Assembly (NCBI GenBank): GCA_035275285.1
Contig: DATENA010000068.1
Span: 303-64,302 of the forward strand
Source of the DNA: Fibrobacteria bacterium
GTDB taxonomy: Bacteria; Fibrobacterota; Fibrobacteria; UBA11236
Direction of reading: 5' to 3'
DNA length: 64,000 bases
Each line of letters begins with the position of its first letter. Within the stretch, counting starts at the first letter, position 1. Position numbers and translations under genes: made by a program. The notes beneath the pieces are model-generated. The model saw nothing but the letters and a program-made list of their open reading frames with translations. It did not search any database and was not told where the DNA came from. Shown one piece after another: positions 1,748-16,734 of the stretch.

Positions 1748-2671
1748 ATGGTCCGGATAGCGGCTTGGAATGCAGGGAAACTTTATGCCGACCTATACCG
1801 TCGGCACCGGGCGCAGGTGTACAGGCAGTGCCTGTCCCTGGTCCGGGATCAAGAGGAGGCTTCGCAATTATGCCAGGATGTATTCCTGAACGCCATCCGG
1901 AGCTGGTCCGGGTTCGCGGGGCGTTGCCAGCCGTCCACTTGGCTCATTTCCATCGCCCGCAATGCCTGCCTGCAGCATTTGCGGAGGAAAAAGCTGTACG
2001 CGGCGCGCCTGCAATTGCTTCCCTACCAGGCGACCGGCATGTCCCAGGGCTGCGGCCTTTCCCTGGAGGAAAAGGTCCTCACCGCAGTGCAACTGGGCAG
2101 GACCATGGCCGCTGCGACCCCGGCCACGCGCAGGATCCTCTGGCTCTACTACAAAGAAGGGCTCACCCAACTCGAAATCGCGTCCGTGATGGGCTTGTCC
2201 CGCTCCGCCGTCGGCAAGGTGCTGGCGAAGGTGAACTCCGAATGGTCGCGGGCGCGCCGAAAAGGGCGTCCGGGGAAAGGAACGTCTTTTCCACGTGATC
2301 CTGAACCTCCAGCCGGCGATACAAGATGTCAGGGAGGCCCTTTTCCAGGGGCAATTCCAATTCGCGGAATCGATCCTCAAGCGGCTTTTCGAGGGAACGG
2401 AAAGCGCCAGGGAGATAACGGCCAGGCAACTCGAGAAGGCCGCCCGCGATCGCTGGAAGAAATTCCACCCCTGGCACCTCCACACGGCGGTGGATCCTTT
2501 CCTGGCCTTCCTGCACGCCCATCCGGAAGCGATCCCGGAGACGAGCGTCCAGGGGAGCCGGTTGCAAATCCTGGCGCAAGCGGTGATCCAGAACGGATCG
2601 GAAGGGTCCGATGGGCTGATCCCTTTGCGGGAAGTGGTGGAGGATCTGTACGACGGTTTCCTCAGCGATGA
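1748..2671 (+). CDS. ECF sigma-70 family RNA polymerase sigma factor (true end possibly 2298)
   Basis: Region 2 (LYRRHRAQVYRQC...QDVFLNAIRSWSGFAGRCQPSTWLISIARN) and region 4 (LYYKEGLTQLEIASVMGLSRSAVGKVL). As written, the frame runs 377 nt into the next gene. Confidence 0.85.
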   Translation: MVRIAAWNAGKLYADLYRRHRAQVYRQCLSLVRDQEEASQLCQDVFLNAIRSWSGFAGRCQPSTWLISIARNACLQHLRRKKLYAARLQLLPYQATGMSQGCGLSLEEKVLTAVQLGRTMAAATPATRRILWLYYKEGLTQLEIASVMGLSRSAVGKVLAKVNSEWSRARRKGRPGKGTSFPRDPEPPAGDTRCQGGPFPGAIPIRGIDPQAAFRGNGKRQGDNGQATREGRPRSLEEIPPLAPPHGGGSFPGLPARPSGSDPGDERPGEPVANPGASGDPERIGRVRWADPFAGSGGGSVRRFPQR

Positions 2672-3767
2672 TTTCCGGGAACGGATCAAAGGCCCGATGC
2701 GCGGCAGCGGCTTGATGCCGCCGCTGGTGGAATGGACTTTGGCCCCGGATATGCGCCCGTTCACCTTGGACGAAAGGCGGCTGAAGAAGCTGGGCGTCCA
2801 TTGCGGCGTCATCGGCATGCCGAGGTCTTTCTCGCGGGGCGGGCTCCTGGTATGGGCCTCCCTGGCGCATGAAGTGTGCGGGCATGCGGTGCTGAACGCG
2901 TACCCCGGGGCGCTGGATCCCGTCCGCGCGGAAGTGAACGCCGCCCTGAAGCGGAGGTTCGCCGCGGGTCCCGCCGCCCAGCTTCCCGAATATTGGGACC
3001 GGTGCTTCGAAGAGGCGGCCGCGGACTGCCTGGGAATATTGCGGCTGGGACCGGCCATGGCCGTGGGGTTCATCGGCGCCTTCCGGAGCGGGCGCGCTTT
3101 CCTGGCGGAAAGGAACGGCGCCGCGTCGCTCTCGCCCGGGCTGGGCCGGGAGGATTACGATCGCCACCACCCTTCGGACCTGTTCCGGGCCTTGTTGATG
3201 ACTTCCCTGTGCGGCCGCCTGGCCTTCCGGAAAAGGCAGGAATGGAAAAGGATCCTCATGGCGGAGATCGCCAAGGACTTCGGACCGGCCGCGCCGGGCG
3301 GCATCCCTTGGGAGGACGTCCGGGAGTCGACGGAAATATTCGCCGGATCGTTCCTGGATACGCCCATGGAAAGCTTCTCCGGGCTCTCCATGGGCCGCCT
3401 GCGCAATTGGAGCGACTGGGACGAAGCGACCGCGGCCGCAACGCAGTCCCTGATCGCGATGGAACGGAGGGAAGCCTCCGCCCAGCGGCCCACCGGCCTC
3501 CACGCCACCCACGCGCTCGCCGCCGCCATCCTCCTGGCGGCCTCCGACGGGAACCGGATCCGGATCCCCGTCCTGTTCCGCAGGCTGATGAGCCTGCTCA
3601 AATCCATCCACGCCGAGAAACGGCCGGCCCCGTCGCCCATCGTCCCGGTGCGCGCGCGGCTCAAGCCGGAAAGGAGCGGACCATGTAGCACCCGAACGGA
3701 CCCAAACCGGAAGAAAAACGGAAAAAGACACCGACATCATTCATCATGTAGGCAAATCAAGGAGTAA
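2295..3767 (+). CDS. Uncharacterised zincin-like protein with HExxGH motif (putative metallopeptidase/hydrolase)
   Basis: HEVCGH at 2868-2885 and EEAAAD at 3009-3026; GTG start. Activity is inferred from the motifs only. Confidence 0.7.
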   Translation: MILNLQPAIQDVREALFQGQFQFAESILKRLFEGTESAREITARQLEKAARDRWKKFHPWHLHTAVDPFLAFLHAHPEAIPETSVQGSRLQILAQAVIQNGSEGSDGLIPLREVVEDLYDGFLSDDFRERIKGPMRGSGLMPPLVEWTLAPDMRPFTLDERRLKKLGVHCGVIGMPRSFSRGGLLVWASLAHEVCGHAVLNAYPGALDPVRAEVNAALKRRFAAGPAAQLPEYWDRCFEEAAADCLGILRLGPAMAVGFIGAFRSGRAFLAERNGAASLSPGLGREDYDRHHPSDLFRALLMTSLCGRLAFRKRQEWKRILMAEIAKDFGPAAPGGIPWEDVRESTEIFAGSFLDTPMESFSGLSMGRLRNWSDWDEATAAATQSLIAMERREASAQRPTGLHATHALAAAILLAASDGNRIRIPVLFRRLMSLLKSIHAEKRPAPSPIVPVRARLKPERSGPCSTRTDPNRKKNGKRHRHHSSCRQIKE

Positions 3768-3772
3768 GCATC

Positions 3773-3994
3773 ATGTCCAAGCTCATCTCATTCGCGAACG
3801 ACATCTTGAACTCGGAATCCCTCCAGAAGGATTTCATGCAGGACCCGGAACAGGTCATGAAGGCCCGCGGGCTCTCGGGCGAACAGATCGCCATGCTCAA
3901 GGATAGGAAGAAGACGAACGCCATCAAGGCGATCACCGAAGAGCTCAATTCCTATGAAAAGGTGCTGAAGAACACCCATCGGAATTCCTGGTAG
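3773..3994 (+). CDS. 73-aa peptide with LigA-like/borosin-binding-domain leader and C-terminal Trp; putative RiPP precursor
   Basis: Strong AAGGAG RBS at 3759-3764. Leader pattern F..D....DFMQDPEQVMKARGLSGEQI; short tail ending NSW. The ORF is well supported; the precursor role is inference. Confidence 0.75.
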   Translation: MSKLISFANDILNSESLQKDFMQDPEQVMKARGLSGEQIAMLKDRKKTNAIKAITEELNSYEKVLKNTHRNSW

Positions 3995-4044
3995 GCCCGG
4001 ACCCGGGACCTCCTTCAACTCGAACCCCGGCGGAGACGGACACC

Positions 4045-5103
4045 ATGCGCATGCCCTGGCCGATTGAAAACACTTTCGAACTGCTGCGGGCGGACGCGCC
4101 GGACGAACTCACGCCGGGCGATTCCCTGGCCCGGATGCAAGCCCATCTGAAACGGCTTCCTCCGGGCTCTTCTTCCTATTTCCTGGAATGCAGGCTCGCC
4201 AAGGACGACGACCGGGTCGATTTCGGCGCCTGCTTCCGGTCGCCGCTGGATTCCGCCACCGCCCCGGCCGGAAAGCCGGGCTTCGCGGCGCCTTCCGGGA
4301 ACCGCCCCGAGGACAAGGCCTGGGAGCCCGTGAACCGGGCCTTCTCCCTGTGGGCCTCCCGGACCTCCGGACTGCGGAACCGCGTCCCCTACATCTGGAT
4401 TGAAATGGACCAGGCCGGCCCGCAGCCGGGGGCCGCCGTCCCCGGCTTCCTGTTCTGCGTCGACCCCTCCCTGGCCCGCGTCCCGGAACGTTTCCAAGCC
4501 GGACCGGACGGCCGAAAGGACTTGCTCGCCATCGCCCGGGAAATCGAAAAGGCGCTGTTCGGATCCGGACTCCCGGCCGGGTGCGGCAAGACGTTATGGG
4601 ACTGCCTGACCGCGCTGCCGGCCGAAGGCCGCATCCTGCACATCTCGGCGATGCCGTCCCGGTCTCCGGCCGCCCTCAAACTGAACATCTGCATGCCCAA
4701 GAAAGCTTTGTTCGGGTTCCTGAGGCGCATCCGCTGGCCCGGATCCCCCGCGGAGCTGGAAAAACTTTGGGAGGCGTTCCATCCGTTCATGAGCTGCGCC
4801 AAGATCGATCTGGAAATCAGCGCCGGCGTGTCCCCGCGCCTCGGCTTGGAACTGCATCCCTACAATACGCCGAGAACGGCGCGGAAAGCGGCCCTCCTGC
4901 GCCTGGCCCGCTCCGGAAGCGCCCAGCCCCGCAAGGCCCGCGCCCTGGCGGCCTGGTGCGGCAACGTCACGCGCATGTTTCCCGGGCATCGCTGGCCCAC
5001 GCACATGGTCAAGGAATTCGGGCTCAAGCTCGTATTCGCGGAAACGCGGCCCCTGCAGGCCAAGGGGTACCTGGGGTATTATCCGATCTTCTCCCTGCGC
5101 TGA
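4045..5103 (+). CDS. Putative PT-barrel (ABBA-type) aromatic/peptide prenyltransferase-like protein
   Basis: Motif order FLECRL..VDF, WIEMD, ISAMPSR, RWPGS, KIDLEI...PRLGLE, KLVF...AKGYL matches an uncharacterised family that I associate with the PT-barrel fold. Not confirmed by search. Confidence 0.5.
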   Translation: MRMPWPIENTFELLRADAPDELTPGDSLARMQAHLKRLPPGSSSYFLECRLAKDDDRVDFGACFRSPLDSATAPAGKPGFAAPSGNRPEDKAWEPVNRAFSLWASRTSGLRNRVPYIWIEMDQAGPQPGAAVPGFLFCVDPSLARVPERFQAGPDGRKDLLAIAREIEKALFGSGLPAGCGKTLWDCLTALPAEGRILHISAMPSRSPAALKLNICMPKKALFGFLRRIRWPGSPAELEKLWEAFHPFMSCAKIDLEISAGVSPRLGLELHPYNTPRTARKAALLRLARSGSAQPRKARALAAWCGNVTRMFPGHRWPTHMVKEFGLKLVFAETRPLQAKGYLGYYPIFSLR

Positions 5104-5113
5104 TGCGCCTGCC

Positions 5114-5134
5114 GCCTTTCCCGATCGGAAAGGC
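5114..5134 (+). promoter_or_regulatory. Intra-operon stem-loop (possible mRNA stabiliser or attenuator)
   Basis: GCCTTTCC-CGATC-GGAAAGGC is a perfect 8-bp stem; there is no long U tract. Confidence 0.4.
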
Positions 5135-5164
5135 TTCCCTCCCGAAACGAAAGGAATCATAGAC

Positions 5165-7681
5165 ATGATCGACAATAGAGCCTTGGATCCGACGCCGGAA
5201 TGCTTCGAAGCCTGGTTGATGGGCACCAAAGGCGAGAACGCCGAGGAGCTCGAGAACCTGGTCGTGGAGGCCGTACGGGACACGGCGTATTGGAGGCGGC
5301 ACGTTTTCCCCATGGATCCGCGGCATATCACCGAGGAAATGAAGGAATCCCCGGAATTCAAGCGCTCGGTGGTCAGGCTGAGACAGGAATTCCAATCCCT
5401 TCTATCCTATCTGAAGCGATCCGTGCCCGCCTTCAGCATGAGATATCAGGCCCATATGGGCTGGGATCTGCTCCTGCCGGGCATGCTGGGATATTTCGCG
5501 GGGATGTTACATGGATCAAACAACGTCGCGTACGAAGGGGCGCCCGCGACCACGGTGCTGGAATCCATCGCCGCCCAGGACCTGTGCCGGATGCTCGGGT
5601 TCCGGCCCGCGGACGGCTTGCGCCCCTGGGCCCATTTCACCGGAGGCGGGACCCTGTCCAACATCGAGGGGCTTTGGGCGGCCAGGAACGTGAAATTCCT
5701 ACCTTTTGCCGTCAAGGAAACGTTGCAAGCCTTCGAACGGGAATTCCGCGCGAGCGGCGACGTCCACGGACTTGAGAACATGGCCGAAGCCTTGCGTCTG
5801 GAAGTAGCCTGCCGGCGGCCGGGAGAATTCCGGACCAAGAGCGTCCCCTTCGGCGTACTGACCGCTTGGGAGCTTCTCAATATGGGAGTGGATGAAGCCT
5901 TGGCGCTTCCCGCGAGGGTGGGAGCGATCCTGGACGAAGACCCGGCGGGTCCGGTCCGGGAGCGGTTCGATTCGGCCCTGATAGCCAACGATCTGAACTC
6001 CCGGGGGCTGCGCGCCTTTCCCGCGCCCGGCACGGACGGCATAGGGGGCGCGCCGGTAGTGCTCGCCGCCGGCACGCGCCACTTTTCCATCGAAAAGGCC
6101 GCCTGCCTGCTGGGCATGGGGCAGGAGAACGTGCGCAACGTCTTCGTGGACGAATCCGCCCGCATGGACATGGGGCACCTGGACGGGATCCTGGCCGACT
6201 GCCTGGAACGGCGGATCCCGGTGCTGGCCGTGGTGGCGACCCTGGGGACCACGGAAGAAGGCGCGGTGGATCCCCTCAGCGACATCGTGCAGTTGCGGGA
6301 CAAGTACCGCATGCTGGGCCTGGACTTCGCCCTGCACGTGGACGCGGCCTGGGGAGGCTATCATGCCAGCATCCTGCGCGAGGACTTCCCGATGGACGAC
6401 GTGCTCTTCGTGGTGCCCGCCCAGGAGGACGCGCCCGGCGCGGCCAAGCCCAACCTGCAGGATACCTTGGGCGGGGCCAGGGAGGCGGGCACCCCTTCCC
6501 TGGGCCTTTCCCGCTACGCGCGGCTCCAATACGGCGCCCTGCCCCACGCCGATACCGTCACGGTCGATCCCCACAAGCAGGGCCATATCCCGTTCCCCGC
6601 CGGGGCCATCTGCTACCGCAATTCCGCCCTGAGGAACCTGGTGCGCTTCGGAGCGCCTTACCTGGGCGCCCTCGTGCCGCAAGCCATCCGCCAGGCGGAC
6701 GGCGCCACCGATCCCTTCATGGGCATCTACGGCGTGGAAGGCTCCCGGCCCGGCGCCGCAGCGGCCTCGGTGTTCCTGACCCACCGGCTGGTCAGGCCCA
6801 GCAAGAGCGGATACGGCCGCCTGATCGGCATGGAGATGTTCAATTGCAAGAAGGTATTCGCGTTGATCTCGCGCTTGAACCCGGGCGGCGAGGACTGGAT
6901 CGCGGTGACGCTCGCCGGCGCGGCGGGCCGGGAGGAGGCCTGCCTGCGGGCCGACGCCCTGGGGAACGCGGAAGCCGGCCGGGACCCGGAACTGCTGACG
7001 GCCATGGAAGAGATGGGCCCGGACCTGAACATCCTGGCCTACCTCTTCAACTTCAAGGCCGCGAACCGGTTCAACCAGGACCTGGGCCTGCTGGCGGCCT
7101 TCAACCAGGCCATTTACGACAAGATCCGCCTGCGTCCGGAAAGGGAATACGCGGAGCACAAGCTTATCGTCAGCCAGACGCTCCTGCTGGGGAGGAACTA
7201 CGGTCCACGCTTCCTGAACGGCATGCTCGCGCGCCTCAACCTGGGACTGCGGGCCAACCCGGAGAATTGCGGGCATATCAACCTCTTCGCCCTCCGTTCC
7301 ACCGTGGCCAATCCCTGGCTCACGGATACCGTGGAAGGCTCTTTCCTGCCGCATTTCCGGGAGGAACTGCGGGCGGCCGTCCGGCAGGGACTGGAAGAGG
7401 TCCTGATCATACGCAACGTGATGGAGGAGCTCAAGCGGGAACGCAGTCCTTTGCTGGGGGACCCGATGCTGCCGATCCGGCTCGTTCCCTTCGCGCCGGA
7501 CCTGCTGAGGGGAAAGCTCCCGGAGGAATTCGTCCCTCCCGGAGCGGAAGGGGAAGGCTTGCGCGCCGAAGAGCCGTGCACGCACATGGTCCGGACCCTG
7601 CTGCGCCGGGGCCGTGGCGCGCAGGCGGAGGATCTCCCCGGGGAAGCCCTCAGGAAGTTCAACGAGGTCCAGGCCCGATGA
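5165..7681 (+). CDS. Group II PLP-dependent amino-acid decarboxylase, tyrosine decarboxylase-like
   Basis: TyrDC-type N-terminus (LMGTKGENAE...AYWRR), NNVAYEGAPAT, GGTLSNIEGLWAARN, HVDAAWGGY, PLP-lysine motif VTVDPHKQG, GVEGSRPGA. Confidence 0.9.
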   Translation: MIDNRALDPTPECFEAWLMGTKGENAEELENLVVEAVRDTAYWRRHVFPMDPRHITEEMKESPEFKRSVVRLRQEFQSLLSYLKRSVPAFSMRYQAHMGWDLLLPGMLGYFAGMLHGSNNVAYEGAPATTVLESIAAQDLCRMLGFRPADGLRPWAHFTGGGTLSNIEGLWAARNVKFLPFAVKETLQAFEREFRASGDVHGLENMAEALRLEVACRRPGEFRTKSVPFGVLTAWELLNMGVDEALALPARVGAILDEDPAGPVRERFDSALIANDLNSRGLRAFPAPGTDGIGGAPVVLAAGTRHFSIEKAACLLGMGQENVRNVFVDESARMDMGHLDGILADCLERRIPVLAVVATLGTTEEGAVDPLSDIVQLRDKYRMLGLDFALHVDAAWGGYHASILREDFPMDDVLFVVPAQEDAPGAAKPNLQDTLGGAREAGTPSLGLSRYARLQYGALPHADTVTVDPHKQGHIPFPAGAICYRNSALRNLVRFGAPYLGALVPQAIRQADGATDPFMGIYGVEGSRPGAAAASVFLTHRLVRPSKSGYGRLIGMEMFNCKKVFALISRLNPGGEDWIAVTLAGAAGREEACLRADALGNAEAGRDPELLTAMEEMGPDLNILAYLFNFKAANRFNQDLGLLAAFNQAIYDKIRLRPEREYAEHKLIVSQTLLLGRNYGPRFLNGMLARLNLGLRANPENCGHINLFALRSTVANPWLTDTVEGSFLPHFREELRAAVRQGLEEVLIIRNVMEELKRERSPLLGDPMLPIRLVPFAPDLLRGKLPEEFVPPGAEGEGLRAEEPCTHMVRTLLRRGRGAQAEDLPGEALRKFNEVQAR

Positions 7682-10600
7682 CCGAACCCCGGGACGGCTA
7701 CAAGGTGTTCGATACCGTGCGGGACGGAAGGTCGACCCTGCTGGTCCGTTGCGTGCGCGTGCGCGACAACCGGCGGGTGATGCTGCGGATCCCCAAACCC
7801 GACCACCCGGGCGGCGAAGGGCTGCGCGGCCTCCGCAATGAGTTCGAGATCACCCAGGGCCTGGACGTCCCCGGCGTCCTCAGGGCCATGGAGATCGATC
7901 GCAACGGCCGGATGCCGGCGCTGGTGCTGGAGGATTTCGACGGGATGACCGCGCGCCAATCCCTGGGCAACCGCGCCATGGAAACGGAGAGCTTCCTGCG
8001 CTTCGCTTTGCAGTTGACGGAGATCCTGGCGGGCGTGCACTCCCAGGGCGTGGTCCACGGGGGATTGAACCCGTCCTGCATCCTCCTGTCCCGGAGCGAC
8101 GGCACGGTGAGGTTGACCGGGTTCGATCAGGCGTTCGGACCGGTGCCGAGGCAGGCTTCGATCACCTGGGACGGGGAACCGGGGGACAACCTGGCCTACA
8201 TCTCCCCGGAACAGACCGGCCGGTTCGAGGGCCTGGTGGATCACCGCACGGATCTCTACTCCCTGGGCATCCTCTGGTATGAAATGCTGGTGGGCATGGC
8301 TCCCGTCCAGAGCGAGGACGAGGGCGAAATCGTGGCCTTCCACCTGGCCCTGGAGGCCGTGCCGCCCTGCGAGCGGAACCCCGCCGTGCCCAGGATCCTT
8401 TCGGATATCGTGATGAAGCTCATTTCAAAGTCCGCCGACCAGCGCTACGCCAGCGCCCGCACCCTCAAGGCCGATCTGGAGCGGTGCCTGTGGGGCCTGG
8501 AGAATTTCCGGACCATCGAGCCGTTCCCGCTGGGCCAGGGGGATCTGCCCGAACGCTTCCCCTATCCGCAAAAGCTTTACGGACGCGAGCAGGAGATCCG
8601 CAGGCTGGTGCAGGGCTTCCAGCGTTCCCTGGACGGCGGCCGGGAACTGATCCTGATCTCGGGACCGGCCGGAGCGGGGAAGTCCTCCCTGGTCCAGGAG
8701 CTCCGGTTCCACGTGGGCAGCAAAGGCGGCTATTTCTCGGCGGGCAAATCGGACCCGCTCTCGCGGGAACTCCCCTATAGCGCCGTCACCCAGGCCTTCC
8801 GGGGCCTCATCCAGCAGATCCTGACCGAGAGCGAGGAGCGCCTGGCCGGTTGGCGCAACGATCTGCGGGAAACCCTGGGCGCTTCCGCCCGCATGCTGGC
8901 CGACGTGGTGCCCGAACTGGACCTGCTGATCGGGAAGCCCCCCGGCATGGCCGGCCCGGGACCGGCCGAGGCCCAGGGCCGGATGCATTTCACCTTCCTG
9001 GCCTTCTTCTCCGTATTCGCCAAGCGGGGATACCCTTTGGTCCTGTTCCTGGACGACCTGCATTGGTCCGACGTGGCGTCCCTGGACCTGATCAAGGCCA
9101 TCTTCTCCATCGATTCGGATTCCCGGCCCATGGTCATCGGCGCGTACCGGGAGAACGAGGTGGGCCAGGGGCACGCCTTGTCGGCCATGATCCGGGATCT
9201 CCGGAAAAAAAAGGTGCCCATCTCCACCATCCCGGTCCACCCGCTCCCGGTCGGATCCCTCAACCGATACCTGGCGGACCTGTTCCGGTGCCGGCCGGAA
9301 CACAGCCTGGACCTGGCCATGGCCGTGCACGGGAAAACCGACGGCAATCCTTTTTTCGTGATCGAATTCCTGAAGGCGATCCAGGGAGAAGGCCTCCTCA
9401 TCGCCCCTTCCGGTCCCGCCGGACGGGAAGACTTTCCCATCCGGCGGGACCGATGGCATTGGAATCTGCAAGGCATCCGGAAAATGCGCATCACGGAGAA
9501 CGTGATCGATCTGATCGTCAACCGGCTGCGGGCCCTGTCCCCGGAAACGCAGCGTTCCCTGGCGCTGTGCGCCTGCCTGGGAGGGAGGTTCGACCTGGAG
9601 GACCTGGTCCTGCTCGACGACAGGCCGGAGGCGGTGGTCTTCGCCGGCCTCGCCAAGCCCGTGGAAGAAGGCTGGCTGGTCCCCGAATCGGAGACGGGCT
9701 TCGCGTTCCAGCACGATCGCATCCGGCAATCCGCCTATGCCTTGCTCTCGCCCGCGGAGAAGGCGGCGACCCATCTCCGCATCGGCAGGGCCCAATTGGA
9801 TCAGGCGCGCCCGGAGGCCCTCGACGATTCCGTGTTCGAAATCGCCGGGCACCTCAACCGGGGCTGGACCGCGGGAGCGACGGAAGCCGAACGGCGCCTC
9901 TATGCGGACATCAACCTGCGCGCCGCCCGCAAAGCCGTGGCCGCGGCCGCCTTTTCGGAGGCATTGGTCTACTTCGGGGCCGCCATCGACTTGCTGGGCC
10001 CGGGGAAAAACGCGGCCGGGATGGCCTACCCCTTGTTCCTGGGAAAAGGGGAATGCGAATACCTCAACGCGGATTTCGCGGTGGCCAGGGCCAGCTTCGC
10101 CAAGGCCATGGAGGTGGCCGAGACGCCGCTGGAAAAGGCGTCGGTGTTCGCCGCCCGGGCCCGCATGAGCGAGCACGCTCTCGACCATGCCGCCACGCTC
10201 GAGGACGGCATCCGGGGGCTGCGCATGCTGGGCATAAGCATGCCCGCCTCGCCCGGCAAGGCCCGGCTGGCGTTGGAACTGCTGCGCGTCCTGGCGGCCA
10301 AGGGCCTGCGCGGACCCGCGGAACTGGCCCGCATCCCCGATCGCTGGACGCCGGAGGCGGCGGCCGGCATGGGCCTGCTGACCAACCTCTGGTCCATGGC
10401 CTTCCTGACCGCGAACACATCGCTGCAAGGGATGGTGGTGCTGAAGATGCTGCTGGGAAGCCTGCGTTACGGGAACTCGGACGTTTCCGCGGTGGCGTAC
10501 GCCTGCTACGGCGTGCTCCTCTTCTCCGTATTCAGGAGGGCCGGGGTCGGGGAATCCTACTGCCGCATGGCCATGAGGCTCGCGGAAAGGTATCCCAACC

Positions 10601-12678
10601 CTTCCGCCAAGGGCAAGGTCTACTTCATCTACGCCTCTTTCTTCAGCCCTTACAACCATTCCCATCAGCGGACCCTGGAATACCTCCGGGAAGCCTTCCG
10701 CCATTGCATGGAGGGCGGGGACCCCGTCTATGCCGGATACTGCAACGACGTGGTGCTCTACATCATGCCGTTCTCCAGCTTCACCTTGGAAGACATCGAA
10801 GCGGAGGCGGACCGGATCGCCGGTTTCGCCTCGGGCACCGAGAACAAAGGCAACGCGGAAACCCTCCTGGTGGCGCGCAGATGGATGGACCTGTTGCGCA
10901 GCGATGCGTCCACCTGCCTCGCCCGCCTGGAGGAAGGGCGGACGTTCGAAGATCAACTTACGGATCCGATGGAAAAAGGCTATTTCCAGATGCTGGAGAT
11001 CCAGATGCTGGTGCTCTTCCGGCGCTACGGCGAGGCGCTTCGCGTCTCGGAGCGGCTGCGCGGGTGCCCCATCATCGATCCCGCGGGAGGTTTCCGGCCC
11101 TTCTATTGTTTCCACCGCGTGCTCATCCTGTCCGCCCTCCACGACGTGCTGCCGCGGAAGGAAAGGGGAAAGCGGCGCCGGGAGATGATCGGCCACCGGG
11201 ACCGGCTGGGAAGCTGGGCGCGGCGGAGCCTGGAGGGTTTCAGCCATATGCATGCCTTGGCCGAGGCGGAAATCCGCAAGCTCGACGGGGACATGGCCGG
11301 AGCGCAGGCGCAATATGCCCGTTCCCTGGCCTGCGCCCGCGCGCAAGGGTACCTGCAATTCGCCGCCCTGGCCGCGGAAATGGCGGGACGCCTGCATTCG
11401 GAATGCGGGGATCCGGCCAAGAGCAAGGAGTTCCTGCGCGATGCGTACCACGGCTATCTCGCCTGGGGGGCCCCGGCCAAGGCCCAGGAACTCGCGGCTT
11501 CCCATCCCGGCGTGGTGAACGTAAAACCGTTCCGCGTCCCGGCGGATCCGCCCGATCGGGACGGCAACGGGAGCGCGCTCGCGTCCTGGCTCCGGCCCCT
11601 GGACCTGAAAGCGATCCTGAAAGCCTGCCAGGCCATGTCCGGCGAGCTGGCCATGAGCAAGCTTCCCCGGAAACTGCTGCGCATCATCCTGGAAAACGCG
11701 GGCGCGCAAAGGGGCGCCCTTCTCCTGGAGAAGAAGGGCCGCCTGATGGTGGAGGCGCTGGAGAGCCTGGACCAGGAGGGGTCCGAACCTTTCCAAGCGG
11801 TACCGGTGGAGGAGTGCGGGGAATTGTCCGCGGCCATCGTGCACTACGCGGCCAGGACCGCCAAACCCGTGATCCTGGCCGATGCTTCCCGGGAAGGGAT
11901 CTTCACCGGCGACGGGTACGTGCAGGCGCGCAAGCCCAAGTCCGTCCTGTGCATGCCGCTGATGAACCAGGGGAAGACGGGGGGCATGCTGTACCTGGAG
12001 AACAACCGCATCGCGGACGCCTTCACGCCCGACAGGCTGGAAGTGATGGAAGTACTGTGCGGCCAGGCCGTGGTCTCGCTCGCGAACGCGGGTTTCCACG
12101 CCATGCAGATGGAGCTGCTGCAGGGGAAGATCAAACCGCATTTCCTGTTCAACGCCCTCAATTCCATCGCCCATCTGACCAAGCTCGATCCGGGCAACGC
12201 CGAGGAAGCCATCCTGCAGCTCTCCCACCTCTACCGGTACATCCTGGCCGCCTCGGAAAACAAAATGGTGAAGCTCAGCCAGGAATTGGAAATCATCAAG
12301 GCCTACCTCTTCATAGAGAAAATGCGCTTCCAGGACAAGCTTGAATTCTCCATCGTCACGGAAGGCGACATCGACAGCGTCACCATCCCGGGCCTCATCA
12401 TCCAGCCCCTGGTCGAGAACAGCATCCGGCACGGCGTCTCCCCGAAAATCGGCGGGGGCAAGGTGACGGTCCGCGCCGAGATCGGGGACTCGATCTGCCG
12501 CATCACGGTGGAGGACGACGGCGTGGGCTGGGGCAAATCCCATCCGGGGGGCGCGGGCTACGGCCTCAAGAGCATCCAGGAGCGGCTGCACCTGGTCTTC
12601 GGCAACGAATATTCCTTCGGCATCCGGCGGGAGGGCGGCGTCCTGGTGGAGTTCTCCTTTCCGGTGGCCAGGCCCTGA
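7678..12678 (+). CDS. Hybrid sensor: Ser/Thr kinase-like + AAA ATPase + helical region + GAF + LytS-type His kinase/HATPase (1666 aa)
   Basis: ATGA overlap with the upstream stop. Kinase fold with YISPEQTGR and DLYSLG; Walker A GPAGAGKS; Walker B LFLDDLHW; GAF (SVLCMPL...LYLEN); H-box KPHFLFNALNSI; QPLVENSIRHG; GYGLKSIQERL. Confidence 0.92.
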   Translation: MTEPRDGYKVFDTVRDGRSTLLVRCVRVRDNRRVMLRIPKPDHPGGEGLRGLRNEFEITQGLDVPGVLRAMEIDRNGRMPALVLEDFDGMTARQSLGNRAMETESFLRFALQLTEILAGVHSQGVVHGGLNPSCILLSRSDGTVRLTGFDQAFGPVPRQASITWDGEPGDNLAYISPEQTGRFEGLVDHRTDLYSLGILWYEMLVGMAPVQSEDEGEIVAFHLALEAVPPCERNPAVPRILSDIVMKLISKSADQRYASARTLKADLERCLWGLENFRTIEPFPLGQGDLPERFPYPQKLYGREQEIRRLVQGFQRSLDGGRELILISGPAGAGKSSLVQELRFHVGSKGGYFSAGKSDPLSRELPYSAVTQAFRGLIQQILTESEERLAGWRNDLRETLGASARMLADVVPELDLLIGKPPGMAGPGPAEAQGRMHFTFLAFFSVFAKRGYPLVLFLDDLHWSDVASLDLIKAIFSIDSDSRPMVIGAYRENEVGQGHALSAMIRDLRKKKVPISTIPVHPLPVGSLNRYLADLFRCRPEHSLDLAMAVHGKTDGNPFFVIEFLKAIQGEGLLIAPSGPAGREDFPIRRDRWHWNLQGIRKMRITENVIDLIVNRLRALSPETQRSLALCACLGGRFDLEDLVLLDDRPEAVVFAGLAKPVEEGWLVPESETGFAFQHDRIRQSAYALLSPAEKAATHLRIGRAQLDQARPEALDDSVFEIAGHLNRGWTAGATEAERRLYADINLRAARKAVAAAAFSEALVYFGAAIDLLGPGKNAAGMAYPLFLGKGECEYLNADFAVARASFAKAMEVAETPLEKASVFAARARMSEHALDHAATLEDGIRGLRMLGISMPASPGKARLALELLRVLAAKGLRGPAELARIPDRWTPEAAAGMGLLTNLWSMAFLTANTSLQGMVVLKMLLGSLRYGNSDVSAVAYACYGVLLFSVFRRAGVGESYCRMAMRLAERYPNPSAKGKVYFIYASFFSPYNHSHQRTLEYLREAFRHCMEGGDPVYAGYCNDVVLYIMPFSSFTLEDIEAEADRIAGFASGTENKGNAETLLVARRWMDLLRSDASTCLARLEEGRTFEDQLTDPMEKGYFQMLEIQMLVLFRRYGEALRVSERLRGCPIIDPAGGFRPFYCFHRVLILSALHDVLPRKERGKRRREMIGHRDRLGSWARRSLEGFSHMHALAEAEIRKLDGDMAGAQAQYARSLACARAQGYLQFAALAAEMAGRLHSECGDPAKSKEFLRDAYHGYLAWGAPAKAQELAASHPGVVNVKPFRVPADPPDRDGNGSALASWLRPLDLKAILKACQAMSGELAMSKLPRKLLRIILENAGAQRGALLLEKKGRLMVEALESLDQEGSEPFQAVPVEECGELSAAIVHYAARTAKPVILADASREGIFTGDGYVQARKPKSVLCMPLMNQGKTGGMLYLENNRIADAFTPDRLEVMEVLCGQAVVSLANAGFHAMQMELLQGKIKPHFLFNALNSIAHLTKLDPGNAEEAILQLSHLYRYILAASENKMVKLSQELEIIKAYLFIEKMRFQDKLEFSIVTEGDIDSVTIPGLIIQPLVENSIRHGVSPKIGGGKVTVRAEIGDSICRITVEDDGVGWGKSHPGGAGYGLKSIQERLHLVFGNEYSFGIRREGGVLVEFSFPVARP

Positions 12679-13457
12679 TGGTCTACCGCACCTTGATCGT
12701 CGAAGACGAGAAGAACGCCCGGGACCGGCTGCGCAGCCTCCTGAAAGGATGGGAAGAGCTGATTGAAGTGATCGGGGAAGCGGAGAACGGGCCCGAAGCC
12801 ATCCGCAAAATCAAGGAGATGGACCCGGACCTGATCTTCCTGGACATCAAGATGCCGGGCATGGACGGGTTCGACGTCATCCAGAACCTCGAAAAGCAGC
12901 CCATCATCATCTTCACCACCGCTTACGATGAGCACGCCCTGGAAGCCTTCTCCACCAACGCCATCGGCTATCTGCTCAAGCCCGTGAGCCACGAGGACAT
13001 CGGCAGGACGTTCAAGAAGCTGATGAACCTGGAAAAGCAGGTGTCGGAAAAGAGCCACCGGGGCGACCGGGACAAGCGCAGCGACGAGACCGTCCTGTCC
13101 CTGGTCCGGGAACTGCTCGTGCCCCAGTACCAGAACATCATCTCCTGCAAGGTAGGGGACAAGCTCCAGTTCATCAAGACCCCGGAGATCCTCTATTTCA
13201 AATCCGACAACCGCTCCACCTTCCTGTTCACCAGCACGGGCAAGAAATTCATCGTGGACGCGCCCTTGATCGAAATGGAGAAACGGGTCAACCCCAAGGA
13301 ATTCATCCGCATCCGCCGGGGGACCATCGTGAACCTCGCCTGGATATCCGAGATCCGCAGGACGTACAACGGAAGGCTCAAGGTCATCCTGATGGACAAG
13401 CAAGGGACCGAGCTGGAAGTCAGCCGGGGATACGTGGACGCGCTCAAGGCGTTCTAG
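12678..13457 (+). CDS. LytTR-family DNA-binding response regulator
   Basis: Receiver (IVEDE, IFLDIKMP, FTTAYD, YLLKP) plus LytTR domain (FIRIRRGTIVNL, EVSRGY). TGATG overlap with the kinase gene. Confidence 0.95.
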   Translation: MVYRTLIVEDEKNARDRLRSLLKGWEELIEVIGEAENGPEAIRKIKEMDPDLIFLDIKMPGMDGFDVIQNLEKQPIIIFTTAYDEHALEAFSTNAIGYLLKPVSHEDIGRTFKKLMNLEKQVSEKSHRGDRDKRSDETVLSLVRELLVPQYQNIISCKVGDKLQFIKTPEILYFKSDNRSTFLFTSTGKKFIVDAPLIEMEKRVNPKEFIRIRRGTIVNLAWISEIRRTYNGRLKVILMDKQGTELEVSRGYVDALKAF

Positions 13458-13484: not shown

Positions 13485-13725
13485 AGTGGATCTCTGCAGA
13501 ATTCCTCGCCCGCCCCCCTCCGGGCGCGCGCATTGCCGTTACCCTGGCCCACAGAGCATCCACCCCAGGTCCGCTTGGGTTTCTTGAGCCTTTGAAAAGC
13601 GGGAATCCGCGGTGGGAAAAACCCGCCGGCAGGTTCATTTTTCCTTTTCGGCCTGCTTTTTCCGGGCCATGAGGATATTTTGGAAAGGTATTCGCATCGA
13701 GGGTTCATCGGGGGGAAGCAGCGTC

Positions 13726-16700
13726 ATGAAAAGCGTCAAGCTGGGATTTTTCTTTTTGGTCATTTTGCTGGTCAAGCATGCGGCCGCGCAGCAGATCATT
13801 TTCAAGCCGCCGCGCCCCACCAACATCTGGAAAGCGGACACGCTGTACATCGGCGCCTCTTTTACGCGCAACTCCTTCGATCCGGTTTCCGTCTGGCTCA
13901 TCGGCAATCAAGCCGGCTGGGTGGGAAGCCTGTATTTCATCGTGCCCAAGACGAACGAAGAGGTCTTTCTCTTCACCAACAAGGGCACCACGAACGTGCG
14001 CAACGTCCTGAGCGACAAGTACGATATCCCCGTAGGCGATACCGTGTACTTCCTCTACAAGGTGACACAGCCCGCAAAGGACAATAACCCGAGCGAAGCC
14101 AGCCGCCTGCCCAAATACACGGGCCCCAACATCCCGGGCGAAAGCAAATTCGTCACCCAGCCCGCCAGCGCGGCCTACGGCCACCGCTGGTCCGTGGCCG
14201 GCCGCGTCAACGACAGCATCGTGCAATTCGGGTTCGAGGACAACGTCAACCCCGCGGGGGACACCCACCCTTCGGACATGGACTTCGACGACATCGTGTT
14301 CGGCACCACCCTGTCGCTGGCCAGCGAAGAAGTGCAGCCGCACATCTCCTTCACGGACAAGGCGGGGAACATCCTGGCCCCCGGAGCCTTCTATTCCCCC
14401 GAGAACGACACCATCTACGTCACCTACACGGATGACTATGTCCGGGCCAACCTGTCCAAGGACATCGTATTCAACGTCAGGAACCGCAACGACCTGGCCG
14501 CAGCGGACCTGGACACCTTCTCGGTGGTCTCCGTTTCCCATAACGGCGCCGTGGGTACTTGGAAGCTGAAGGTTCCCATCCAGGAGAAGCCGGGCATTCC
14601 GGGGGACAAGCTCCTGCAATCCTTCTTCCTGGGCGAGGTGACGGCCACCGTCAAGACCCACAACCGTTTAGGCGCGCCGGACAACAATTCCGTATCGGCC
14701 AACCTCAAGGTGGCCTATCCGGACAAACCCGAAACCGTTACGATCCTGAACTGCGCCGATTCGGCCGCGGACATCGTCCGCACCACCAACTGCATCCGGA
14801 TCAAGGCCGGGGACCAGAGCTTCACCCGCGGCCAGGACACCGTCTGGGCGGAAGTGAAATGCGACGGCTCCGGGGACATCATCGGCAAAGTGCCCTTGAT
14901 CGAACAGACCGGGGGCGGATACGTTTCCGGGAACATCGTGAAGAACGAGACCAATCCGCCGGTCAGCGATCAAATCCTCTCCTGCAAATCGAGCGACAAC
15001 GTCACGGTCACCTACGTGGACGAAGTGTACAACAACCGCGTCACGGACAAGAAGACCTTCAGCGGCAATGCCGCGGAAGGCTTCACCTACGTGGAAACCG
15101 CGGCCCCCGGCACCGTGATCACCCAGATCACGGACGGCGCCGCCCCCACCTTCACCGCCGTCGTCAAGGCGCCCACCCCCACCGTGGACGTGGTCGATCA
15201 GATCAACGTGGTGATGACCAGTTCCCAAGGGGACATCGAAACCTTCAAAGCCACGGAAACCGGGCCCAATACCGGCGTCTTCACCGTGGACATCCCCTAT
15301 GGGTTCCAGACCATCCCGGTCGTTTCCGGTTCCGGCAAGGTCGACGGGTTCCTGGATCCCACCCAGACCGTCACAGGCGTGGCCGTGACGGGCGTGGCCA
15401 CCGTCAACAATAAGGAATACACGGCGGCCATCACCCTGAAGCCCGCTTTGAACGCGGTCAAGAATGCCTATATCAAGGACGTGGACGGCGACGGCCGCGG
15501 GGACAAGGTGTACATCGTGTTCAGCCGCCCCCTGGAAGCCTTGCCCGCCACCCTGACGCCCACCTATTGGAACGTCGGCGGGGATCCGAACTTCGACAAT
15601 GCCGCCCCTCCGGTCCTCTCCCTCCTGGACGGCGCGCTCAACACCCTGGTGGCGGATTTCTCCGCCGCTCCTTTCCCCAAGGGGGCCACCTCCATCCCGG
15701 CCACCGCCCAGAAGCCCTATGCCACGCTCCCCGGCGACCCCATCTTCGGCGGCCAGAAGCCCGTCATCGCGGACTCCATGGGACCCATCATCGTGGCGGC
15801 GGTCATCAAGCCTTTCAACAACCTCACGGTGGTGGCCGGCAGCACCGAGCTGAACGTGGACACCCTCCGGATCACCCTTTCCGAAAGCATCAAGACCCAG
15901 GGGGGCATGCAGGGCCTGCTCCGGTTCTCCAAGACCGTCAACGGCGCATGCACGGATTACGCCCATTCCGTGCCCGTGGTCCCCAATGCGGAACCCACCA
16001 TCAACCCCGACGGTTCCTACACCTTCCTGATCGCCGCCGGCAAGGGCCCTTCGCCCCTGGCCGGGGATTGCGTGTACGTCAATGTGAACGGAACCTATAC
16101 GGATCTGTTCGGCAACCTCCCTCCCGAGCACGGCGAACCCATCCAGGGTCCCAAGCCGGCCCGGGAGATCGAGCTGTTCCGCGGTTATCCTCCCGTCGCC
16201 GGCATGAATCCCAGTTCGCCCGGGTTCGTGGTGGTCAACAACGATCCCCAGTCCGATCTCGGCAGCGAATATTCCACCAAGTCGGGCGCGGGATACCAGA
16301 CCAAATGGGTCCCTCCGGCGGACTTCCCCACCGGCGCGTACGATGCGGTGAAGAACCCCTACGTTCCCGTGATTCCCGGAGCGATTACGGCCCCGGTGGA
16401 GCCGGGCAAGGATGCCGGGACTTTCTCCGTCATGCCTCCGGGCATCAGCACGGTCCAGGTCATTTCCACGGGCGAATACATCGCCGACGTGGCCATCTTC
16501 GACAACCTGGGGAATTTCGTCAAGAGCTTCAAGCAAGCCTTCGGATACCGCGGGGAGCTGAACAACCAGGAACGCGCCGCCAAGCGCGGCCTGGTCAGCT
16601 ACCTGGTCTGGGATCTGCGGAACAACAGTGGCCAGAAGGCCGGGCAGGGTGTCTACGTATGGAAGGTGGTGTTCCGCTTCAAGGCAGGCAAGCAGGAAAT

Positions 16701-16734
16701 CCGCTACACCCGTACGGGCGTCATGAGAAACTAG
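13726..16734 (+). CDS. Large secreted Fibrobacterota-type protein with DUF4114-like motif and T9SS/FlgD-like C-terminal domain
   Basis: Sec signal (MKSVKLGFFFLVILLVKHAAA), GFEDN...DMDFDDIVF, AYIKDVDGDGRGD, C-terminal IFDNLGNFV...WDLRNNSGQKAGQGVYVWKV. Confidence 0.8.
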   Translation: MKSVKLGFFFLVILLVKHAAAQQIIFKPPRPTNIWKADTLYIGASFTRNSFDPVSVWLIGNQAGWVGSLYFIVPKTNEEVFLFTNKGTTNVRNVLSDKYDIPVGDTVYFLYKVTQPAKDNNPSEASRLPKYTGPNIPGESKFVTQPASAAYGHRWSVAGRVNDSIVQFGFEDNVNPAGDTHPSDMDFDDIVFGTTLSLASEEVQPHISFTDKAGNILAPGAFYSPENDTIYVTYTDDYVRANLSKDIVFNVRNRNDLAAADLDTFSVVSVSHNGAVGTWKLKVPIQEKPGIPGDKLLQSFFLGEVTATVKTHNRLGAPDNNSVSANLKVAYPDKPETVTILNCADSAADIVRTTNCIRIKAGDQSFTRGQDTVWAEVKCDGSGDIIGKVPLIEQTGGGYVSGNIVKNETNPPVSDQILSCKSSDNVTVTYVDEVYNNRVTDKKTFSGNAAEGFTYVETAAPGTVITQITDGAAPTFTAVVKAPTPTVDVVDQINVVMTSSQGDIETFKATETGPNTGVFTVDIPYGFQTIPVVSGSGKVDGFLDPTQTVTGVAVTGVATVNNKEYTAAITLKPALNAVKNAYIKDVDGDGRGDKVYIVFSRPLEALPATLTPTYWNVGGDPNFDNAAPPVLSLLDGALNTLVADFSAAPFPKGATSIPATAQKPYATLPGDPIFGGQKPVIADSMGPIIVAAVIKPFNNLTVVAGSTELNVDTLRITLSESIKTQGGMQGLLRFSKTVNGACTDYAHSVPVVPNAEPTINPDGSYTFLIAAGKGPSPLAGDCVYVNVNGTYTDLFGNLPPEHGEPIQGPKPAREIELFRGYPPVAGMNPSSPGFVVVNNDPQSDLGSEYSTKSGAGYQTKWVPPADFPTGAYDAVKNPYVPVIPGAITAPVEPGKDAGTFSVMPPGISTVQVISTGEYIADVAIFDNLGNFVKSFKQAFGYRGELNNQERAAKRGLVSYLVWDLRNNSGQKAGQGVYVWKVVFRFKAGKQEIRYTRTGVMRN

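Follow-up and report, generated by a model that had tools for sequence, protein, structure and literature searches.

Several enzymes of the ABBA (alpha-beta-beta-alpha) fold, also called the PT (prenyltransferase) barrel, are known to prenylate tryptophan (Trp) in ribosomal peptides. MppC, the PT of a Moorena lanthipeptide pathway, is a leader-dependent enzyme of the ABBA type and attaches a geranyl group to Trp (PMC12715784). NctPC (Hubrich et al. 2024) is described in PMC13290415 as an ABBA PT fused to an MstE-like cyclase, which geranylgeranylates Trp and has low similarity to cyanobactin PTs; the same paper cites KgpF as an enzyme that prenylates Trp. In Paenibacillus alvei, PalX, an NHLP precursor with a conserved C-terminal Trp, is accompanied by the prenyltransferase PalQ and the histidine kinase PalP; PalQ, whose fold is all-alpha, strictly requires the C-terminal Trp (PMC10853753). 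Here we describe a locus in a 64,000-nucleotide stretch of a Fibrobacteria contig from a rhizosphere metagenome (hereafter the window; GC content 55-68%). The gene at positions 4045-5103 of the window encodes a predicted PT-barrel protein. On balance, we favor the view that it is a leader-guided Trp PT modifying the C-terminal Trp73 of a 73-residue peptide encoded 50 nt upstream, the product of which may then be released and decarboxylated. The two open reading frames (ORFs), both taken from a mechanical ORF list, are as follows:

3773-3994, plus strand: 73-residue precursor-like peptide; N-terminal part helical (F-x-x-D-P-x-x-V-M motif), C-terminus ...KNTHRNSW
4045-5103, plus strand: PT-barrel (ABBA-fold) protein of 352 residues with an ATG start, putative peptide Trp prenyltransferase

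An AAGGAG Shine-Dalgarno-like box lies 8 nt before the ATG of the peptide ORF. The gap between the two ORFs (3995-4044) is exactly 50 nt long, and no attenuator hairpin was detected between the two genes (z = +1.8). The possibility that 4045-5103 is not a real gene was ruled out because full-length homologues with 63%, 45% and 33% identity, surrounded by the same neighbors, are present in other metagenomes. A preliminary description of this DNA had placed the ORF 50 nt after a Trp-terminated peptide, had listed a series of motifs in its product ending with a K-x-Y strand, and had proposed a PT-barrel fold in a family usually annotated as hypothetical. Both ORFs and the gap are indeed present, and the other points were borne out by the analyses described below.

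Models of the 352-residue protein were built with AlphaFold2 from a 12-sequence alignment (predicted local distance difference test score, pLDDT, 79; predicted template modeling score, pTM, 0.82) and from a 126-sequence family alignment (pLDDT 91.4, pTM 0.91). In both models DSSP assigned five helix-helix-strand-strand repeats, the alpha-beta-beta-alpha signature of the PT barrel. Foldseek searches of the PDB revealed only ABBA PTs among the top 50 matches of the first model and the top 37 matches of the second one; past these 37 the matches deteriorated abruptly (E > 0.03, probability <= 0.25). The best structural matches were NphB/Orf2 (E = 1.5e-6 with the second model), CloQ, AmbP1/AmbP3/FamD1 and bacterial and fungal DMATS enzymes (E from 1.5e-6 to 1e-4, probability 1.0), with 5-DMATS and DMATS1 (template modeling score, TM, 0.51) among them. 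Other matches of the second model included LimF, PirF, NotF and CdpNPT; the ABBA PTs 6-DMATS and DciF were likewise found. The alignments to PTs were full-length, at 8-13% identity. Judging from these models, the gene product almost certainly has the PT-barrel fold.

The motifs of the preliminary description, E48-C-R-L51...V58-D59-F60, W118-I-E120-M-D122, A202-M-P-S-R206 and W231-P-G-S, followed in the C-terminal part by D255-L-E257...P264-R-L-G-L-E269, K328-L-V-F and A339-K340-G-Y342-L, are all present, and each of them falls on a conserved column of the 126-sequence family alignment rather than being a chance occurrence. In this alignment E48 and D122 are 100% conserved, D59, R206, K328 and Y342 99%, K340 and K/R212 98%, E120 96%, W231 94%, K297 92%, G267 91%, R50 85% and E269 80%. 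Conservation of the basic and tyrosine positions R50, R206, K/R212, R/K265, K328, K340 and Y342 and of the acidic positions E48, D59, E120, D122 and E269 spans 71-100%. The K-x-Y element (K340/Y342) is located on the last predicted beta-strand, 338-348, and we take it to resemble the diphosphate-binding motifs of DMATS enzymes. Along each predicted strand, charged and hydrophobic residues take turns at the conserved positions. The outer face of a PT barrel is covered by helices, and therefore E48, R50, D59, W118, E120, D122, K212, R265, E269, K328, K340 and Y342 should line the lumen of the model. A Mg2+-assisted diphosphate site would need such a ring of Lys, Arg and Tyr residues together with acids.

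At the sequence level, no relation to known PTs was found. Searches with the window protein against Pfam, NCBIfam and PDB sequences were negative; ten relatives had no Pfam or NCBIfam match either; none of the 126 family members matched any PT family even at E <= 10, and a profile made from them found nothing among PDB sequences. Thus, while the five repeats and the top 37-50 Foldseek matches place the protein in the ABBA/PT-barrel superfamily by fold, it matches none of the curated sequence families (Pfam PTase_Orf2 and Trp_DMAT; NCBIfam LynF/TruF/PatF). A word-indexed search yielded only 12 relatives. An exhaustive HMMER search of 1.84 billion cluster representatives yielded 3,817 at E <= 1e-3, 2,950 at E <= 1e-10 and 892 at E <= 1e-30. 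The family, its size of ~3,800 being the number of 50%-identity clusters at E <= 1e-3, is therefore large, lacks a database model and is not an orphan. The few homologues that carry any name in their source are called 'hypothetical protein', as had been anticipated. A scan of metagenome contigs for close relatives (alignment A5) gave 153 pattern matches, none of which was confirmed, and a repeat scan (alignment A1) returned two short contigs whose flanks were uninformative.

Additional domains are present in several family members. One protein (P0150) consists of a PT barrel and a C-terminal 2-oxoglutarate-Fe(II) oxygenase (PF13640, 3.7e-18), another (P0135) has a weak N-terminal domain resembling ThcOx or an RRE, the recognition element of peptides made by ribosomes and modified after translation (RiPPs), and three (P0014, P0017 and P0019) are tandem double barrels of ~700 residues.

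The assignment of the peptide as the substrate, also suggested in the preliminary description, gained support from the neighborhoods of the relatives. On the contig encoding the closest homologue (P0002, 63% identity), a 73-residue gene is located 9 nt upstream of the PT-barrel gene. Next to homologues with 45% identity (loci L006/L007) the peptide is 74% identical to the window peptide and likewise ends with THRNSW, and next to those with 33% identity (L001-L004) a 165-residue partner protein ends with YNDPW. Even where identity between the peptides falls to 25%, Trp is retained at the C-terminus. The 165-residue partner (6765-7262 in L001) is an internal duplication of a leader-like module, with Trp ending the second copy only.

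Distant relatives (25-36% identity) from Chloroflexota, Dehalococcoidia, Vicinamibacteria and metagenomic bins adjoin NHLP-type precursors with a Gly-Gly site, very short cores and weak precomputed NHase_alpha matches. The cores are MIIMW, MIIVW, IAMIIW, IGGMVTLW, HHTGLWG, LSVIGTWN, RGYRGQGPNWF and (G/S/KN/KH)GWCSP(V/I). In the alignment of ten NHLP precursors, Trp is the sole invariant core column. In Myxococcus dinghuensis, a peptide ending with ...AEGSCTWGANCGK is encoded 73 nt upstream of a family member. Altogether, a family member stands beside a small peptide, mostly of the NHLP type, with a single Trp within the last 1-7 residues, usually at the C-terminus, in 15 loci (the window, L006/7, L001-4, L005, L008, L009 and L010-L018). 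These loci represent five or more lineages: Chloroflexota, Dehalococcoidia, Vicinamibacteria, Myxococcota and that of the window. They show what is expected of a RiPP tailoring enzyme, namely an adjacent precursor whose acceptor residue is conserved in the core across relatives. With homologues of 25-45% identity from other lineages adjoining peptides that share nothing but a single core Trp, the substrate is very probably the Trp peptide.

Some of these loci have features of their own. A Dehalococcoidia metagenome-assembled genome (L012, DAOUKJ010000022.1, 8813-11138, minus strand) has five tandem NHLP precursor genes beside a single PT-barrel gene; their leaders are near-identical, while the cores (RGYRGQGPNWF, HHTGLWG, IAMIIW, IGGMVTLW and LSVIGTWN) are hypervariable, 5-11 residues long and contain one Trp each. 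In the GWCSPV-type loci (L016, 9085-14059; L017, 9040-14210), the PT-barrel gene is directly followed by genes for two family-III CoA-transferases, an FAD monooxygenase (FAD_binding_3) and an FAD_binding_4 oxidase. In the MIIMW/MIIVW-type loci (L005, L008 and L018), a class I methyltransferase is encoded between the PT enzyme and the precursor.

The window peptide itself was also considered as a member of NHLP. Its match to the NHLP model NF038399 (E = 0.037, 14 bits) is below the cut-off of 40, and hhalign comparison with the NHLP partners of the distant relatives gave E = 0.028 with a shared F-x-x-(L)-x-D-P-x-x-V/I motif. We do not class the peptide as NHLP because this profile match is weak and covers 20 columns only; a GG motif is also missing. 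Similarity to LigA/IniB-N models was also weak and below the cut-off.

An isoprenoid link comes from relatives of the window protein. In four of them (P0157, P0139, P0102 and P0047), N-terminal domains with Q-x-x-x-G-x-W repeats are fused to the PT barrel. As single sequences, these domains have only a faint SQHop_cyclase match, and with the P0157 domain by itself neither Pfam nor PDB searches produced a signal; only when the four were combined in a profile did squalene-hopene cyclases and drimenol synthase emerge as PDB matches (E from 3.2e-5 to 1.2e-4). In M. dinghuensis, a gene starting 4 nt after a family member matches MstE, which is a class II terpene cyclase with one domain (E = 2.8e-55), and 'prenylcyclase' (1.2e-45). 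A cyclase of the MstE type requires an aryl-polyprenyl substrate, and its association with the family is therefore the strongest indirect support for prenyl transfer. From these sequence relationships we consider that family members probably transfer prenyl groups.

The M. dinghuensis locus (L010, NZ_JAKCFB010000017.1, 5149-13147) is a compact cluster with two PT-barrel paralogues and the MstE-like cyclase. It also encodes a WelO5-like halogenase (9.6e-79), a DUF697 protein, a JmjC protein, two PhyH dioxygenase-like proteins, one of which was confirmed by Pfam, and a small peptide ending with SCTWGANCGK. By gene content, the cluster looks like a pathway for a halogenated, cyclized prenyl-Trp peptide in a cultured strain.

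In the window, the peptide and PT-barrel genes belong to a block of seven co-directional genes (1748-13457) whose starts and stops abut or overlap. The five other genes are:

1748-2671, plus strand: extracytoplasmic function (ECF)-type sigma-70 factor (Sigma70_r2 2.8e-17, Sigma70_r4 5.9e-7, TIGR02937 6.5e-21)
2295-3767, plus strand: 490-residue orphan with HExxH...ExxxD, putative gluzincin-type metallopeptidase (H192, E193, H197, E240 and D244 invariant)
5165-7681, plus strand: 838-residue group II pyridoxal phosphate (PLP)-dependent decarboxylase (PF00282 1.7e-20; 73.5 bits, cut-off 27)
7678-12678, plus strand: 1,666-residue sensor with Ser/Thr kinase, AAA_16 (STAND) ATPase, GAF and LytS-type histidine kinase domains (Pfam)
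12678-13457, plus strand: LytTR-family response regulator, the last gene of the block (Response_reg 3e-24, LytTR 7.5e-21)

The sigma-factor domains are contained within approximately the first 185 codons; the tail of this ORF continues to 2671, and the GTG start of the HExxH gene lies inside it. The HExxH protein, which has no Pfam, NCBIfam or PDB match, is nearly an orphan: among 5.8 billion proteins it has three homologues, the signature residues being invariant in all four. In P0002 and L006 a homologue adjoins the PT-barrel gene, and on a third contig (P0179) a homologue is found with a 328-residue gene that has no Pfam match and a PLP decarboxylase gene; on all three homologue contigs inspected, the gene is thus part of a cluster of this kind. 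The decarboxylase of the window belongs to group II of the PLP decarboxylases, and its translation contains a D-P-H-K motif, which presumably carries the PLP lysine. Its match to TIGR03811, the model of the enterococcal tyrosine decarboxylase (TyrDC), is strong in E-value (3.8e-81) and reaches 273 bits against a cut-off of 905. PF21391 is matched as well (6.7e-5). By sequence the enzyme is TyrDC-like without being an equivalog of the enterococcal protein. The kinase gene begins before the decarboxylase stop and overlaps it. Pfam matches in the kinase are Pkinase (1.1e-15), AAA_16 (1.5e-35), GAF (2.7e-14), His_kinase (1.5e-24) and HATPase_c (1.6e-5). The kinase contains no uncharged hydrophobic 20-mer and no membrane-like segment and, on this sequence criterion, is cytoplasmic. 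The start of the regulator gene abuts the kinase stop, and a terminator-like hairpin is present at 13564-13579.

The arrangement is conserved elsewhere. The P0002 contig has a sigma gene in the same position, followed by the HExxH, peptide and PT genes. In L006 the peptide and PT genes are accompanied by a fragment of the HExxH gene (38% identity), by the decarboxylase (59.6% over 826 residues) and by the start of the kinase (45.6% over 147 residues). In L001-L003 a kinase with 38.7% identity over 675 residues follows the PT locus. L001 keeps the peptide, PT and kinase and has a secreted 488-residue protein at the decarboxylase position; this protein, considered as a counterpart of the HExxH protein, is not homologous to it and was rejected. 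The HExxH protein, the PLP decarboxylase and the giant kinase belong to the same unit as the PT gene. Neither tRNA genes nor Rfam families at gathering score were found in the whole 64-kb window.

Downstream of the block, a 1,040-residue ORF (13612-16734) has a hydrophobic N-terminal segment and no Pfam match; to the eye, the last ~30 residues look like a sorting tail for secretion. The genes beyond it encode receptors with CarboxypepD_reg/TonB-plug domains, a phosphatase similar to PhoX and a protein with Big_7 repeats.

How the locus relates to described systems can now be stated. With MppC and the P domain of NctPC the window protein shares the predicted alpha-beta-beta-alpha barrel and the indole of a peptide Trp as the predicted acceptor; in much of its family the partner peptides have long structured leaders of the NHLP/Nif11 type. 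NctPC, as described, is further similar in that family members show low or no similarity to cyanobactin PTs and that some are fused or adjacent to MstE-like cyclases. In contrast to both systems, the window operon is without a lanthionine synthetase and a cyclase, the predicted acceptor is the last residue of a linear peptide without a Gly-Gly site, and the partners are the HExxH protein, the PLP decarboxylase and the giant kinase. MppC is said to belong to the cyanobactin PT family, whereas the window protein matches no model of that family. The cyanobactin F-family PTs (PagF, KgpF, LimF, PirF and DciF; TIGR04445) have the same fold and act on peptides. They differ in having no sequence match to the window protein even at E <= 1-10 and a different set of conserved residues, and they are leader-independent enzymes acting on macrocycles made by PatA/PatG-type proteases, none of which is present among the operon genes (the 1.7-13.5 kb region, the neighborhood scanned here). 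The small-molecule ABBA PTs that give the best structural matches have no profile-level sequence relation to the family and use free aromatics as substrates, while the window family is tied genomically to peptides.

Functionally, the closest analogue is PalX/PalQ/PalP, with its C-terminal-Trp precursor, Trp prenyltransferase and adjacent sensor kinase (PMC10853753). PalQ and the Bacillus enzyme ComQ are, however, all-alpha proteins similar to trans-isoprenyl-diphosphate synthases with the FARM (first motif rich in aspartate), whereas the window protein is a predicted alpha/beta barrel; it has no polyprenyl-synthase Pfam match and is not a member of the ComQ/PalQ family. The similarity is therefore convergent and limited to function. 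The kinases differ as well, ComP and PalP being of the membrane type and the window kinase a cytoplasmic protein combining Ser/Thr kinase, AAA, GAF and histidine kinase domains, and the ComQ/ComX/ComP and PalQ/PalX/PalP systems have no decarboxylase or HExxH gene.

Starting from the gene, fold, family, peptide association and synteny observed above, we infer prenyl transfer, its donor and site, cleavage, decarboxylation and a signaling role as follows. The enzyme would dock on the helical N-terminal part of the 73-residue peptide, as MppC does on its Nif11 leader (PMC12715784), and transfer a prenyl group from dimethylallyl diphosphate (DMAPP), geranyl diphosphate (GPP) or a longer donor to the indole of Trp73. 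R50, R206, K212, R265, K328, K340 and Y342 on the barrel strands would bind the diphosphate, while Mg2+, the indole N-H or both would be bound by E48, D59, E120, D122 and E269. Cleavage by the HExxH protein may then free the modified Trp, either alone or within a short fragment from the C-terminus. Since the substrate of the decarboxylase must be a free alpha-amino acid, prenyl-Trp freed in this way would be converted by the PLP enzyme to prenyl-tryptamine, and the GAF-containing cytoplasmic kinase with the LytTR regulator, and the ECF sigma factor, may sense or regulate the product. The cleavage-and-decarboxylation route is possible, though we hold it to be doubtful. As a whole, the picture of a seven-gene block making a membrane-permeant prenylated tryptamine, or a close derivative, from the C-terminal Trp of a scaffold peptide, which is sensed by the GAF/Ser-Thr-kinase/His-kinase protein with its LytTR regulator, is rather unlikely to be right in full.

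In the pathways of mycofactocin (MftA-E) and of pearlins such as 3-thiaglutamate and ammosamide, a ribosomal peptide acts as the scaffold and a small molecule is assembled at its C-terminus. By analogy, the window system would likewise modify the C-terminal residue of a peptide, after which a dedicated peptidase would release a small molecule. The differences are that no radical-SAM or PEARL/LanB-like enzyme is encoded among the scanned neighbors, that the Trp of the window peptide is genetically encoded, and that the predicted chemistry would be prenylation followed by PLP-dependent decarboxylation.

Several observations weigh against Trp73 prenylation and the steps proposed to follow it. Neither single-protein nor profile searches found sequence similarity to any characterized PT. 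TM values to the matched PTs are only 0.40-0.51 and root-mean-square deviations 7-9 Å in spite of full-length alignment; the topology is therefore shared and the geometry diverged, and equivalence of the active sites is predicted at most. The conserved set, with its five acids predicted to face the lumen, is unusually acid-rich for an ABBA PT. There is no terpene cyclase in the window and no prenyl-diphosphate synthase among the scanned neighbors. Statistical support for the window peptide as an NHLP is lacking, and its 73 residues include no Gly-Gly site. Finally, the L001-type locus, as far as the contig reaches, has no decarboxylase, so that the downstream steps rest on three or four loci.

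Some of these points would also fit a PT-barrel protein that does not transfer prenyl groups and is instead an inert peptide-binding protein or scaffold, as PatF, or catalyzes other chemistry on Trp, such as alkylation or cyclization. The missing sequence link to any active PT and the atypical acids in the predicted lumen are in accord with this explanation, as is the presence, in some loci, of oxidases, CoA-transferases or methyltransferases rather than terpenoid genes. We regard it as improbable: the near-invariant Lys/Arg/Tyr and Asp/Glu positions across ~3,800 clusters argue for catalysis, all 37 top PDB matches are PTs, and the fusion or adjacency of family members to MstE-like cyclases requires a polyprenyl substrate. 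To our knowledge, every solved protein with the PT-barrel fold is a PT or a dead copy of one.

It is also conceivable that prenyl transfer does occur but, as with DMATS or NphB, to free Trp, to tryptamine made by the decarboxylase or to tyramine, the 73-residue ORF being an unrelated small protein. 5-DMATS, 6-DMATS, DMATS1, NphB and CloQ are among the best Foldseek matches, a gene resembling Tyr/Trp decarboxylases is directly downstream, and the window peptide has no significant NHLP match. Yet the Trp peptide is present in 15 loci from Chloroflexota to Myxococcota, most of them without a decarboxylase, and since this pairing persists in so many decarboxylase-free loci the explanation is disfavored; conservation of the C-terminal Trp between 25%-identical peptides and the weak RRE-like N-terminal domain of one member also speak against it, and we consider it quite improbable. 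It is most implausible that the locus is a regulatory cassette of sigma factor, kinase and regulator in which the small ORF is an anti-sigma factor or adaptor and the PT and decarboxylase are unrelated metabolic passengers: three of the seven genes are regulators and the small ORF weakly matches several unrelated helical families, but the order HExxH, peptide, PT, decarboxylase, kinase is kept at 45-63% identity in other metagenomes, the trio of peptide, PT and kinase persists at 33% identity, and gene starts and stops abut or overlap.

Trp prenylation by a leader-guided PT barrel, the reading we prefer, is not new in kind, since ABBA enzymes that prenylate Trp of ribosomal peptides (KgpF, MppC and NctPC) are already known. 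What is new is a very large sequence family that current models do not see, and the systematic way in which it is paired with tiny cores ending in Trp. The window subtype adds a third novelty, in that a dedicated HExxH protein, an amino-acid decarboxylase and a giant kinase of the cytoplasm are combined with the enzyme. Since no Pfam or NCBIfam model sees this family of ~3,800 clusters, standard genome-mining tools probably miss it. Peptide PTs, particularly Trp-selective and terminus-selective ones, are wanted as lipidation catalysts (PMC13290415). The family described here is consistently paired with short Trp RiPP cores, such as MIIMW, GWCSPV and HRNSW. With a family hidden Markov model, the natural substrate peptides listed and a host in culture, Myxococcus dinghuensis, the hypothesis can be tested directly. 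Should the proposed route hold, amine signals of the indole-terpenoid type would be made on ribosomal peptides as scaffolds, and the window would represent a new peptide-derived indole-terpenoid autoinducer circuit in soil bacteria, built on a PT-barrel family that has no database model.

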